A DNA stretch of 62,657 nt, the filler included. It is 12 parts of 12 records of this genome, joined end to end, with 100 filler letters (N's around TTAATTAATTAA, not from the genome) between each part and the next. Parts side by side here need not be neighbours in the genome. Positions count along the whole stretch, not along the records: positions 55,401 to 59,503 come from SRR7504441_16438; 11 more parts are not named here. The stretch is one strand, 5' to 3'. The translations under genes and the position numbers were made by a program. The number at the start of each line of letters is the position of its first letter. Position 1 is the first letter of the stretch. Shown one piece after another: positions 10,382 to 59,759 of this stretch. The notes beneath the pieces are model-generated. The model did no database searches and was not told the origin of the DNA. It worked only from the letters and a program-made list of their open reading frames with translations.

Positions 10382-10421
10382 CTCGGCCGGCGCCCTCCTC
10401 AGTTGCAGGCGCCGGCGTCAT
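10382..10421 (-). promoter_or_regulatory. SECIS element of the rhodanese gene
   Basis: Minus strand reads ATGAc-gccggcgcct-gcAA-ct-gagg-ag-ggcgccggc-cGAg: kink-turn core, 9-10 bp helix II, unpaired AA, mini-stem. It starts 20 nt after the stop. Confidence 0.9.
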
Positions 10422-10441
10422 CTCGGGCCGGCCGTTGTTTG

Positions 10442-10801
10442 CTACTTGAGCACGGCCCACTGCTCTTCGGTGGTGGTGCCCCCGCCATTCAGAACAGCCC
10501 CGAACCCTCGCTGCTCCAGGAACGCCCCCGCGGCCACCGCCCGGCCCCCGGACCGTCAGTACAGGATCAGCGGGGTCTGCTTGTCCCCCGGCAGCCGGTC
10601 AGTCGGCATGCTGCTCCCGTCCCACTCCTGCACCACCGCCCCGGCCGCCAGCCCGGTCTGCTCGATCTCCTCGGCCCGGCGCAGGTCGACCACCACCGCT
10701 CCAGCCGCCTTGGCCGCCCGCAGCTCCGCCGCCGAGGCCAGAGCCGAGTACCCAGCCGCCGAGCTCCGCCAGCCCAGCCGAGCAACCCCTCGGGCCAGCA
10801 T
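10442..10801 (-). CDS. Single-domain rhodanese selenoprotein (119 aa; Sec TGA at 10556-10558)
   Basis: VVVDLRRAEE...PLILY*RSGGRA...FLEQRGF.AVLNGGG. The TGA is at the catalytic Cys position, the frame stays open to TAG at 10442-10444, a SECIS follows, and the N-terminus is Arg/Ala/Ser-rich like a transit peptide. Confidence 0.88.
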
Positions 10802-18629: not shown

Positions 18630-21600
18630 CTATATAGTCTGATCGTCTTCGTTGTCGGAGTTCCAAAGCGTGCGGAACGCCACAATCTCGTTCACGCCGT
18701 GCCCAACGCACACTATTGTGCGCCTTGGGCCAACGACCAACAAGTCCATCACGCGGAAAGTACACCCCACGAATTGGTAGCACAATGAGAGAGTCAGAAT
18801 TTCATACACATGGACGGTGTTGCTTTCGCGACCAGTACAAATCAAGAACCCGCCGTCAGGTGCAGCCCGAGCCAGCCCGACAGGTTCTTGTGTTGACACG
18901 CACGGAGACAGCTTGCGGCCATTGATGCTGAATGTTTCCATGCTAGTGCATGTTGTATCCAACAAAGTGAAACACGCGTCGTTTGCCAGCACAACCAATG
19001 ACGGTTGAAATGACAGCTCAATTGTACGCAGTGCATGGGCTTGCTGCAATGACGAGACGACAGCGGTAGCAACTGCATCTACTGAAACTACTGTATCGAG
19101 TTGAGGCACCAGTGAAACGCTAACTAGAGGCTCCAGATGTGCATGGACAACCGCAGCTGGAGAGCCCGGCAGTTCAATTGGGCTCTCGTGCGATTGGTGC
19201 TCAATCGCCCAGGTGGCCAGGGTGCAGTCCACTGAACCAGTGACCACGTACAGTATCCTCGTGTTGCCGTTACTATGGTACTTGAGAGCAATACAAGTGA
19301 TCACACCGCGGTGTCCAAATGCGCGCTGCACCTCCCGCAGGTTCCGAGGAACGCCCTTGGCGCCCGGAGTTGGGCCGCAGCGCAGGCTGCCGTCGTAGTT
19401 CCCCCCAAAGAACGCCCAGCTGCTGTCTGGCACAGTGGCCAGCGGCAAAGAGGAGCCGGGCAGATCGATCACTGCGCTGCCCCATCCTTGCTGCTCCAAC
19501 CAGCTGCGGGCCTCTGCGATCTGTCGGGTAGAGATGTTTCTCAAGTGGTATTCAGTCTCTAATCCAGCCGGTCCATTCATCCGAGGCACCAAATACCCGC
19601 CAGGCGGTGGCCGCTCAAAAGGGCACGGGCATGACTGCTCAGATGCCCCCATGTGCCTTTGTGGGTGCGGCTCAGTAAACAGTTGGACTGGAGTCTGCCC
19701 AAAGTGTGCTATTTGATCCTCGATGGGCTTGCGTTCCTCTGGTGGCAGTGCATTCAGGTCCACTGCGTCGGGGTATGTGAGGTAATAGAAGCTGTTCTGA
19801 GCATCGATGGCTTCCTGGCCCTTCTGCTTGAAACCAAAGATAAGGTCTATCCACTGGTGTAGATGCCGCGATACATGCTCGCACTCAAGTGCCTCTCGGT
19901 GCTTGAAGATGCAGTCCTCGGGTGAGGCTGCCCATGGCGGCAGCTGAACCTAACATTAATATTCAGTCAGACTTTGGTCTTCGGGACAAGTCACCTCGCC
20001 GATCTCCTCCTCGGTCCTCGAAAGCCTCCCAAGATCAAGATTGTTCATGTTCTACATACAAACCAAAATATCAGCTCCGTGCACTGGAAGTAGTTTGTGT
20101 TACCTGGAGCATCTCTGGTTGGTAGTACATCTCAGGGACAAGTTCCGTCACTTCCGATTGCAGACTCATGCAGTTGTTCCATTTAGTTGGGATGGAGTGG
20201 AAAAGCCGGTCAGCTATGTCGAACTTACCGGACTGAAGGTCGATGTGCAACGTGGTGAACGGCTCGAGCCGAATCAAGTAGTACATTACTAGTGCCCCAC
20301 ACGAGTAATGTGTCCCATAGTGAAAGGCAGGGATCTCAGGATCACACCACGTCGAGTAACGCTCTCGATAAAGTGCAATCCGCTCTTCGTCACCTAGCGC
20401 TCCGATCGGCTTGCTGAGGTCCCGAAAGGCCTCTGGGTCATCCAGATCGAGTTGGCTAGACACGTAGTCTCTGAGCACCCACGGAAACACCGGATAGCAG
20501 CTGATGTCATTGTGAGAGCGGCCAGCAATCATGTTCAGAAACATGAGATACCCAAAGTTGGAGACGTCGCCGCGCTGCCACTTCTCAGTCATCTTGGAGC
20601 GCTTAAGTATCTTGGCTGGATGATGCCGCCACCAGCCGAGAGTGTCGTTGGACATGCCAAGCCGAGCCTTGATCCACCGCCCCAGAACTTTGTATCCGCT
20701 TGTTTTGAGCGAGACACAAGATGTCTCCAGCGCGCGAGCGACAGCATCCCGAGCTTGCGCATCTTTACAGTTTAGAAACATCGGACGCTTTGAACTTGAG
20801 AAGAACAGCTCGAGAGACGAGTCTCGGAGCAAGTAGCGGCGCCTCTGAATATATGTGACTTGGTCCAGCTGCCGCTCCCGCACACGACACTGCTCTGCTG
20901 GCGGGCTGCTGTCCTCTGGTGCTGTTTCGTATGGAGTATGCATAAACTTTGTTGTCGTGATCTCAAGTACCCCTGTATAAACCCCAGTGGGCAGTACCAA
21001 AGTAATTTCGTCAAATTTGTGATTCACTCGGTTTCTTGCTTCATGCTCCAGCATCTCCTGTGCCACAGTCTCGGCGTCGACCATGTCCCAATCCTGCACA
21101 CAGCCACCAATCAGCAGCGCATCACTCTAAAATGCGCTTACGTCGTCGCTTGTGATGTCAGCATCCAAAATCTCCTCTTCTACATTCATATTGGGGTCAC
21201 TGCTGGGAAGCCGTTTCAGTTGCAACAATTGGCGCTCTGCTCGCTCGCTTACAGACTCGTTGGCGGTGTTGCTCTCCTCAGATGGCTGCCGTACCGCGTC
21301 TTGGTGTCCGCGGTTTTCGGTATCCTTCTTCAGCCTGAGGCGTCGCCTTAAGCCATCCTCGGTCGGATCAAGCTTCCAGTACTGCGTAGCACCTTCCTTG
21401 GTCGATTCGAGCATGTCAACAAACCCTCGGCTGCGCAGTTTCCTATCGCTGTCGGCCCAGGCACGTCGGATGTGCGCATTGGTTCGCTTCATAGCAGCGC
21501 GACGCTCCATCTCATTGGCGATGCTCTGTTCGCTTGCTGCACGCAGTTGCTTCAGGGCGTTGTTCTGCTCCCGAATGGCAGGTCGAAGGGCTTCCGGATG

Positions 21601-57211: not shown

Positions 57212-58334
57212 ATGAGCGGGGCGCACCTGCGGGCGGCCTTCCGAGGCCAGCCGCTGACGCAGCGCCTGGTGCTGGCACACGAGGCGCTCGAGCGCTCCTG
57301 CCGGCGGAGGGGCTGCTGGGCCTGCGGGCTGTGCGGGCTGGCCGCACTGTGCGGACTGGCGGTGCTTTCGGCTCTCCAGCTCTCGCTGCTGCAAGCCAGC
57401 GTCGGGGATGTGCTGGCGGGCAGCCGCGGCCGGTGCGAGCTCTCACAGCTGGTGGCACGGCAACAGCCGTACCTACCGCACAACTGCCGGTGGTGCAAAG
57501 TCACTCGATGCGCCCAGTGGCACGACCTGTCGCCGCGCAGCCGAGCGCAGTTGACGGGCCTGGAGAACCGGGAGCCGACTGTGCGAATCTGCTTAGACAA
57601 TCTGGTCCCGCCGTGCCGCGCGATTTCATTTGGTGCCAGTTCAATCCGGTCGGCGGTGATTGTGGCAGGTGTGGACTATAAATGGGAGTTCGACGACCTT
57701 CTGCTTGCCCGCGGCTGCGAGGGTGCGGCCGCTTTGGCCATCGGTTGACCTGCTATGGGCTAGTATGGTCATTTGATCCGTCCATGAAAGCGCCGCATCC
57801 CGATGTGAAGCGCGGGGAACTGCACAGGTTCTTTCAGGTTGGAATTGGAGCGTACGATGGGACACACTCCGGTACACCTGCAGTCTTCCTGGCCCTCACC
57901 GTGTGGTCGCAGGTGCGGCGAGCACTTTGTACGGAGGGTGGAGCGGCTACCCAGTGAAGCGGATCCAGACAATTATGGACGAGATGCATGCTTTATCGAT
58001 CGACATCGTCCGGATGGACACCGAGGGTGCGGAGTGGGACGTGTTAGAAGACTGGATCAGCTCCGGATTCCTGTCGACCGGCGCGATCCGCCAACTAGCT
58101 GTCGAGATTCACGGTGAAAGTTGGCGAAATCCGCCGGCAAGGAGCAAGCCGGTGAAAATGCGGCAGCGCCACGGCGAGTTGGTGCGCTCGATCAAGTCCT
58201 GCCGGCAAGGCCGCATACTTGCAGCGTTGTCTAGTCAGATGGATTGGATGTGGTCTCAAAGCAATTCGGACAACCCAACGAGCGTCTTTGAGCTAGGGTT
58301 CATCTATCCTAATCGGACCCTTCAGAATAGCTGA
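57212..58334 (+). CDS. METTL24/Methyltransf_22-like type II membrane methyltransferase, multi-exon
   Basis: TM anchor; [53 protein letters not shown]. Confidence 0.8.
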
Positions 58335-58482
58335 CGAGGCCACAAGTTATCGCATGCATTCATACTAAACGTTCCAACTCCTAGGTATATAATCATACTT
58401 ACATAATACTTACAAGCATGTTCTTTGTACGAGAGGCTCTCCGCTGCCTTGGCCCCGACGAAGCCGTACGAAATGTATCGCC

Positions 58483-58527
58483 ATCATGCGCTGTGAGTGT
58501 CATTTGACATTCCTCACGCACAGTCAT
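58483..58527 (-). promoter_or_regulatory. SECIS element (type II) of the peroxiredoxin gene
   Basis: Minus strand reads ATGAc-tgtgcgtgag-gAA-tgtc-aaat-gaca-ctcac(a)gcgca-tGAt: 10-bp helix with one bulge, AA, 4-bp mini-stem. Confidence 0.9.
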
Positions 58528-58576
58528 CTGATCGGCTCGCGTCAGCACCAGCGCCAACGGTCGTCCTGCTAGCGGC

Positions 58577-59262
58577 CTATTCCTCGAGATCCTTGAGCAT
58601 TTGCTCCACCAAGGTCGGCTCCGGGTTGTCGTCACCAGCAGGGTCACCCTCCGGCTCCGGCACGTGCAGGGCCTTGACCACACCGTCGTCCACCAGCATC
58701 GAGAACCGCTTGGACCGATCGCCCCCGAGCTTGGCCCGCGGACCCGGGTCACTCATGCGCATCCCTGTCCGGCCTGGGCTGGCCAGCCTCTCAAATGGGG
58801 CACCGAGCGCGTCGGTAAGCTCTCCAAACGGATCCGCCACGAAGTTGATGATCGAGCCCTCCTTGTCAGCGCCCACGCCCTGGTCCTTAGCCCAGGCCTT
58901 CATCACGGCGCCTGCCCGGGAGCTGCGGCCGGCCCCGCCTGGTTCGGCACCGTCGTTGATGCAGCTGACCAGCACCTCATCGATCCCCTTAGCCTTGAGC
59001 GCGTCTGCCGCCGCAAGGTACCCGGGGACCTGCTTTGTGGATCAGGTGGGCGTGAACGCGCCCGGCAGCCCGAGCAGCACCGCCTTCTGTAGGCAAGGGC
59101 TCAGCACGGCCGTGGGCTACATCGGTTTGCCTTGCCCTTGAGCCGCTCCTTCAGGTCCACGTGCTCGGGGGGGAATCCAATGTGCACCGTCGCGCTGGGA
59201 ATAGTGGCGCCCACTTCGATCGCCGACCGGCAGAGCCGCTTCGGGGCGGGTTCCTCAGCCAT
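58577..59262 (-). CDS. Prx5-type peroxiredoxin selenoprotein (Sec TGA at 59042-59044); GC-AG intron 59087-59130 plus probable in-frame introns
   Basis: IEVGATIPS..KGK|KAVLLGLPGAFTPT*STKQVPGY..KGIDEV..IND|GAVMKAW..ADPFG..RSKRFSMLVDDGVV; SECIS downstream. Confidence 0.92.
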
Positions 59263-59759
59263 GGCTTCGTCTTGACCACCGAAGCCGAGCAAGTCCGTTG
59301 ACGTGGCTGAACGTTGGCGCCGTGAACGTCGACCACAATCATCCAGCGATCCAGGTGCATGCTCGCCCTGCCCGTTTCTCTTGCCCGCCCCTACCCTCCT
59401 GGCTCTTCTTGAACGCTCGACCAGCGGCCCAGTTCTGTTGCCCTATGCTCCGGGCTGCCGCCCAGATTCTCTGATCCCGCCCCCCCCCCCCCCCCCCCCC
59501 CCCNNNNNNNNNNNNNNNNNNNNNNNNNNNNNNNNNNNNNNNNNNNNTTAATTAATTAANNNNNNNNNNNNNNNNNNNNNNNNNNNNNNNNNNNNNNNNN
59601 NNNCCTATGTCATTACTGGTACTAGTGTACAATGAGTGAGCTCGACGAGTAAATAAGGCATACTCGTGAACGTTCAGCTCACAGTCATGATCAAATTTTG
59701 AAAGCCCCCAAGTGCCACAAATATGGGGCACAGATTTGTGTCGACCACGGTTTCCACTT

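Follow-up and report, generated by a model that had tools for sequence, protein, structure and literature searches.

A Prx5-type peroxiredoxin gene of a marine unicellular eukaryote with an in-frame UGA, very probably read as selenocysteine, at its peroxidatic codon

Analysis of a 62,657-nucleotide stretch of DNA joined from parts of 12 genomic records (the window, along which all positions are counted) revealed a gene for a Prx5-type peroxiredoxin on the minus strand at 59262-58577, within record SRR7504441_16438. The spliced coding sequence of 564 nt specifies a product of 187 residues, and the locus is very probably a nuclear gene with four exons, from a single-celled marine eukaryote, whose UGA at codon 59 specifies selenocysteine (Sec). 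Translation of 59086-58577 with TGA taken as Sec (U) gives KAVLLGLPGAFTPT-U-STKQVPGY...MLKDLEE, with no other stop until the terminal TAG.

Pfam Redoxin matches the translated product at E = 2.8e-16 (60.1 bits, the cutoff of the family being 26.6; residues 1-146), and likeness to peroxiredoxins is seen both before and after the TGA. A further match, to AhpC-TSA, falls below the cutoff of that family; exon 1 scanned alone against Pfam gave no matches. The top hit in a phmmer search of the PDB was human PRDX5 (E = 7e-18), where GLPGAFTPT-U-S and GVPGAFTPGCS (1h4o/1hd2) line up position by position and the TGA falls opposite the peroxidatic Cys, Cys47 of the human enzyme. The PxxxTxxC active-site motif of Prx5 proteins is thus present, with its peroxidatic residue encoded by TGA. 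The catalytic-Arg stretch typical of Prx5 is also found, RSKRFSMLVDDGVVKAL being aligned with RLKRFSMVVQDGIVKAL of PRDX5 (RSKRFSM versus RLKRFSM), and Arg124, Lys126 and Arg127 are invariant in alignment A1. For structure comparison, the closest full-length homolog, P0003 (a Cys form, 62.6% identical), stood in for the spliced product; its AlphaFold2 model, built from a 33-sequence alignment, has a predicted local distance difference test score (pLDDT) of 90.3. The best Foldseek matches listed for this model are members of the Prx5 subfamily and related peroxiredoxins, namely V. vulnificus Prx3 (VvPrx3), S. meliloti Prx, human PRDX5, Arenicola Prx5 and poplar PrxD, with E-values down to 2.9e-17 and target-normalised TM-scores (TMt) of 0.86-0.94.

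TGA occupies the peroxidatic codon in all 80 related loci recovered from metagenomes and metatranscriptomes, a set collected by scanning metagenome contigs with a 21-sequence alignment of mostly truncated or Trp forms and biased towards Sec forms. In the 57 unique loci that were used for a phylogenetic tree, this TGA is the only in-frame stop. Among the best 120 database proteins (P0003-P0122), the site is Cys in 28, Trp in seven and Arg in two; a further 59 are open reading frames (ORFs) beginning just past it (VPGYL...) and 24 are shorter fragments. The locus therefore has what is expected of a selenoprotein gene, an in-frame UGA at a redox-active position with either UGA or Cys kept in homologs, and TGA at the peroxidatic codon is, among these sequences, a widespread and conserved state.

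A hairpin that begins 49 nt past the TAG has the anatomy of a selenocysteine insertion sequence (SECIS) of the eukaryotic kind, with an AUGA/AA/GA kink-turn core in the 3' untranslated region (UTR). It reads ATGAC-TGTGCGTGAG-G-AA-TGTC-AAAT-GACA-CTCACAGCGCA-TGAT, and in the minimum-free-energy fold consists of a helix of 10 bp interrupted by a single bulged A, where about 9-12 bp is usual for helix II, followed by an unpaired GAA, a 4-bp UGUC/GACA mini-stem and an AAAU loop. The fold continues in a short lower helix as far as about 58536-58480. In both the minimum-free-energy and the centroid folds the AA lies in a bulge that is followed by the extra mini-stem, and not in an apical loop, which is the mark of a type II element. 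A strict pattern (ATGA-N-helix-AA...GA) has just two matches on both strands of the 62.6-kb window (125 kb of strand), compared with a mean of 0.3 (at least nine pairs) or 0.125 (at least 10 pairs) per window in 40 Markov-shuffled windows. In the 3'UTRs of the 80 relatives, a loose scan asking for at least 10 of 12 pairs finds hairpins in 33 (5.5 of 80 in shuffled sequences), a loose scan for ATGA without AA likewise in 33 (5.1 of 80 in shuffled UTRs), and a scan for ATGA with AA in 16, as compared with 2.4 of 80 in shuffled UTRs and three of 80 in a coding-region control. Taken together, these data support the assignment of the peroxidatic residue as a predicted Sec, decoded via a 3'UTR SECIS of type II.

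The second strict match in the window, at 10421-10382, has an 11-bp helix and lies ~20 nt past the stop of a minus-strand rhodanese ORF (10801-10445; Pfam Rhodanese, E = 4e-7) with a TGA at the catalytic Cys, in the catalytic loop LILY-U-RSGGR. The region 10382-10801 is probably a second selenoprotein gene on the same strand, to judge from this arrangement, and a "Rhod" family is listed among algal selenoprotein gene clusters (PMC7539508). That both matches to the SECIS pattern follow redox ORFs containing a TGA speaks independently for Sec decoding in the organism and for the pattern having meaning.

The original prediction placed a single GC-AG intron in the gene; this intron is supported by homology, and the number of introns rises to three. 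Removal of intron 1 as a GC-AG intron gives a gap-free ...KGK/KAVLLGLPG junction, as in homologs, and an alternative GT donor 10 nt deeper in the intron creates a stop, leaving GC-AG as the sole boundary that fits the homologs. Upstream of it, exon 1 translates as MAEEPAPKRLCRS...KGK (full reading MAEEPAPKRLCRSAIEVGATIPSATVHIGFPPEHVDLKERLKGK) and aligns with the N termini of the homologs P0003 and P0004 (IEVGATIP...GFPPE...KERLKGK). The same prediction described the N-terminal PAPKRLCR as resembling a nuclear localization signal; this is unsupported, since the classical pattern is K-(K/R)-x-(K/R) and K-R-L-C-R does not fit it. The start of the gene is only ~240 nt from a sequence gap, beyond which there may be a further exon upstream.

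When exons 2-4 are read unspliced, the product is ~26 residues longer than its homologs, owing to two 13-residue insertions in the alignment with the best database matches. These insertions correspond to exact in-frame 39-nt GT...AG units and consequently indicate two further introns. Both start with GTGCC and end with CAG, and the 13 residues that each would add on retention are free of stops. Removing intron 2 restores CINDGAVMKAW, as found in all homologs, and the fully spliced product aligns with P0003 at 62.6% identity over 182 residues with two gaps and with P0004 at 58.1% identity over 179 residues with none. Short introns are normal in the genome that carries the gene, a BEACH-domain gene at ~20 kb (19950-20100) having GT-AG introns of ~50-60 nt.

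A search of public sequencing runs turned up marine metatranscriptomes containing as much as a quarter of the words that were sampled, and the RNA contigs of four runs from four studies were compared with the locus. Intron 3 is spliced in RNA: near-identical contigs, one each in X1, X2 and X3 (three studies), join 58763 to 58803 and so skip 39 nt, with 54-70 nt on the sides of the joint and with skipped ends of CT..AC on the plus strand, equivalent to GT..AG on the gene strand. The X1 contig (record 1, 426 nt, three differing letters) runs from 58406 to 58763 and then from 58803 to 58868, spanning the stop, the hairpin and the junction, so that the hairpin is part of a spliced transcript contig. 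The RNA contigs of relatives drop in likeness at 59088, the proposed boundary of exon 2. A 127-nt skip (58909 to 59037) and a 389-nt skip in X3 were set aside, as the contigs concerned are diverged. The original prediction had proposed, from the letters of the locus, peroxiredoxin similarity on both sides of the TGA, Sec as the peroxidatic residue and a hairpin about 50 nt past the stop with a 10-bp stem, AA and a TGTC/GACA mini-stem; each of these is borne out by the results above, and the hairpin, whose absence from the mature mRNA it had named as a refutation, is there in the spliced X1 contig.

Features of the Prx5-type peroxiredoxin locus (window positions; Sec, selenocysteine; UTR, untranslated region)
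Feature	Positions	Strand	Description and evidence
Exon 1	59131..59262	(-)	Start ATG 59262-59260; 44 codons; N-terminal beta-hairpin of the Prx fold; translation
Intron 1	59087..59130	(-)	44 nt, GC-AG; retention gives an in-frame stop
Exon 2	58951..59086	(-)	Active-site exon, GLPGAFTPT-U-S
Predicted Sec codon (in-frame TGA)	59042..59044	(-)	Residue 59 of the spliced protein, peroxidatic position
Intron 2	58912..58950	(-)	39 nt, GT-AG, in frame (13 extra residues if read); evidence from homology only
Exon 3	58804..58911	(-)	Homolog alignment; near-identical RNA contigs over 58803-58872
Intron 3	58765..58803	(-)	39 nt, GT-AG, in frame; spliced in RNA
Exon 4, coding part	58577..58764	(-)	Catalytic-Arg region RSKRFSM; TAG 58579-58577; near-identical RNA cover
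3'UTR, at least	58406..58576	(-)	X1 RNA contig
Predicted SECIS, type II	58483..58527	(-)	ATGA 58527-58524; helix II; AA 58511-58510; mini-stem 58509-58506/58501-58498; TGAT 58486-58483

Several results weigh against the reading of the locus as a Sec-peroxiredoxin gene served by this hairpin. The folding energy of the hairpin is unexceptional (z = -1.49, with 18 of 200 shuffled sequences equally stable) and its lower helix is short. The SECIS families of Rfam gave no match on 58300-58700 at E-values up to 10, nor on the loci of 20 of the 80 relatives, where the scans returned chance-level matches only (mir-297, nhaA-I and snoU82P). In the relatives the strict scan has a low yield, nine of 80, and the loose scan for at least 10 of 12 pairs leaves 47 of 80 without a recognised hairpin. 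Lastly, the four runs gave no near-identical RNA or DNA reads over exon 1, the TGA codon or either of the first two introns, and the TGA in the assembly therefore rests on the assembly itself and on its conservation in relatives.

The first group of these results bears on the possibility that the gene is a true selenoprotein gene whose SECIS is some other 3'UTR element or a different fold, with the hairpin at 58527-58483 not functional. The Rfam miss weighs little, because the SECIS models of Rfam were built mostly from animal sequences. The weak lower helix and the unremarkable energy do favour such a reading, and the 47 relatives lacking a hairpin by the loose scan suggest that the family may have, and tolerate, unusual SECIS forms. 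In a MAFFT alignment of 12 candidate SECIS elements from relatives, the ATGA was aligned and the 3' strand was not. Against another element or fold, the hairpin is the sole ATGA/AA/GA hairpin found downstream of the stop by the strict scan, the 12 nt between its ATGA and AA are the usual spacing, and L011, from the same clade, carries 100 nt past its own stop an element that is built alike and also starts with ATGAC. We consider it very unlikely that the SECIS lies elsewhere or takes a different fold.

Still less probable is an origin of the TGA by nonsense mutation, or by a fault of sequencing or assembly, in an ordinary Cys-peroxiredoxin gene; the locus would then be an artefact or a pseudogene, with its hairpin there by coincidence. 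Such an origin would be in keeping with the missing near-identical read or contig over 59042-59044, with the existence of Cys forms (28 of the 120 best matches, including the closest full-length homolog, P0003) and with a draft assembly in which there are gaps and, close by, a contig end in poly-C. Over 59012-59088 the only contigs are those of relatives, with four to six differences per 40-60 nt, none of which alters the TGA. An error or decayed gene is contradicted by the presence of TGA at exactly that codon in each of the 80 related loci, by a frame that is otherwise intact over four exons with at least one intron spliced in RNA, and by the position of a SECIS-pattern hairpin 49 nt past the stop, where the chance expectation is ~0.1-0.3 for the whole window.

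That UGA is an ordinary sense codon for Trp or Cys, with neither Sec nor a SECIS involved, is the least credible of the alternatives, even though some protists have genetic codes with UGA as a sense codon and gene callers gave Trp at this codon in seven of the 120 database relatives: the window holds 58 standard-code stop-to-stop ORFs of at least 200 residues, one of them of 1063, which would break up were TGA a common sense codon, the TGA of the 57 tree loci occurs in frame once and at the catalytic codon alone, both TGA-containing ORFs of the window have their TGA at a catalytic Cys and a SECIS-pattern hairpin downstream, and in seven of the 80 loci the first stop to follow the Sec codon is another TGA, with the TGA-ended L017 and L031 of the same length as the TAA-ended L027. 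A UGA with both meanings, Sec codon and terminator, fits Sec insertion and not a reassigned code.

With UGA read as Sec, a mechanism can be proposed from the anatomy of the transcript and from homology. The type II SECIS, which in the mature mRNA follows the UGA at a distance of ~437 nt, would recruit the eukaryotic Sec-insertion factors, and the ribosome would place Sec at the UGA rather than terminating. The selenolate is expected where the active-site helix starts, next to the conserved Thr (T-P-T-U) and Arg (K-R-F), and would there attack H2O2 or an organic hydroperoxide and be converted to a selenenic acid. The spliced protein has two Cys residues besides the Sec site, in RLCR at the N terminus and in SCIND, and none in its C-terminal region; it thus lacks the intramolecular resolving Cys that human PRDX5 has as an atypical 2-Cys Prx5. 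Two residues before the catalytic Arg, most relatives have a Cys, where the window gene and its clade have Ser. With neither Cys available, 1-Cys-type recycling by an external thiol system, e.g. glutathione/glutaredoxin or thioredoxin, appears most likely. VvPrx3, the Prx5 member closest in structure and, like the window protein, without a C-terminal resolving Cys, is described as a 1-Cys Prx5 reduced by glutathione (GSH)/Grx3/GR, with a second Cys that is buried and dispensable (PMC5755580).

The Cys of SCIND stands directly before an (I/V)ND strand, and in a 93-member alignment a Cys is found at this position in 62 of 65 Sec forms versus five of 28 Cys forms. When relatedness is allowed for, the association between Sec and this Cys comes down to five independent pairs, of which ~2.9 are concordant and none opposite, with a median p of 0.25. 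The idea that in the marine Sec-Prx5 clade this Cys is a Sec-specific resolving partner, forming a selenenylsulfide in a Sec/Cys two-residue type not described for Cys-Prx5, is unlikely. VvPrx3 has a Cys in the same strand, two residues from the position in question, and this Cys is reported to be buried and dispensable (PMC5755580).

The history of the site was examined in a quick, unrooted maximum-likelihood tree of 93 rows (65 Sec and 28 Cys forms), from which 23 of the 80 loci (duplicates, or those with a Sec-to-stop distance outside 120-140 codons), the two Arg forms and all truncated database ORFs were left out. The tree requires at least six changes between Sec and Cys, five of them on well-supported branches; as it is unrooted, no direction is claimed. 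The window gene falls in a clade (Shimodaira-Hasegawa-like approximate likelihood ratio test, SH-aLRT, 97) with P0004, in which the recorded Trp corresponds to TGA, with L011 and L015 (both Sec) and with the Cys form P0003. The named neighbours with Cys are dinoflagellates (Polykrikos, Tripos, Gymnodinium and Polarella) and a diatom.

Compared with Cys-type Prx5 proteins of known structure (human PRDX5, 1hd2 and 1oc3; VvPrx3, 5k2j and 5k1g; poplar PrxD type II, 1tp9), on which the P0003 model superposes with the TMt values given above, the window protein shares PGAFTPx(C/U)S and K-R-F. It differs in the replacement of Cys by Sec at the peroxidatic site, in a four-residue insertion (GVGADKEG region) and in an acidic C-terminal tail (DPAGDDNP...MLKDLEE), the last two being common to its marine relatives.

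Sec-peroxiredoxins have been counted in O. tauri (one), O. lucimarinus (three) and T. pseudonana (two), and the family is reported from unicellular eukaryotes only (Lobanov et al. 2007, PMC2375036); PRX is likewise listed among the most widely distributed algal Sec proteins (Jiang et al. 2020, PMC7539508). The "Peroxiredoxin" of Ostreococcus and Thalassiosira and the algal "PRX" (PMC2375036, PMC7539508) are, like the window gene, Sec-peroxiredoxins of marine protists with a 3'UTR SECIS. Nearly all elements of Ostreococcus are described as having a G before the SECIS core (PMC2375036), whereas both elements in the window have ATGA. The best database homolog of the window gene is only 62.6% identical to it, and literature searches by name returned no paper naming the Prx5 subtype for eukaryotic Sec-peroxiredoxins. 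From the Sargasso Sea, "Prx" selenoproteins with a TXXU motif make up 43 sequences, the second most abundant known selenoprotein family there (Zhang et al. 2005, PMC1088965). This family shares T-x-x-U with a peroxidatic Sec and is filed as prokaryotic and under COG1225 (PMC1088965). A prokaryotic Sec-peroxiredoxin would use a bacterial SECIS inside the coding region, whereas the window gene is interrupted by introns and has a SECIS of the eukaryotic kind in its 3'UTR. PrxU of Eubacterium acidaminophilum, said to have been described by Sohling et al. in 2001, is reportedly a bacterial Sec-peroxiredoxin.

Elsewhere the window carries BEACH, ankyrin, GH32 and ABC genes and is eukaryotic. The best matches of the BEACH-domain ORF reach only ~45% identity, in a search whose length window of 193-615 residues shut out full-length BEACH proteins, and an amino-acid-transporter ORF had no database matches at E = 1e-10. 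At 59480-59603 and near 12.1 kb there are joins with a C run at the contig end and N runs around a TTAATTAATTAA linker.

The gene is a well-supported if unremarkable further case: peroxiredoxins with Sec have been published before from single-celled eukaryotes of the sea, and what is added is a corrected gene model and no new mechanism. Because it needs UGA recoding and has three introns, all very short and one a GC-AG intron, ordinary gene callers will truncate or miss it, and public protein sets mis-call the family systematically, as 59 of the best 120 proteins start past the UGA and seven read it as Trp. Correct models matter for counts of marine-protist selenoproteomes and for relating selenium supply to oceanic peroxide defence, and the gene confirms the published picture that Sec-peroxiredoxins are common in marine unicellular eukaryotes.

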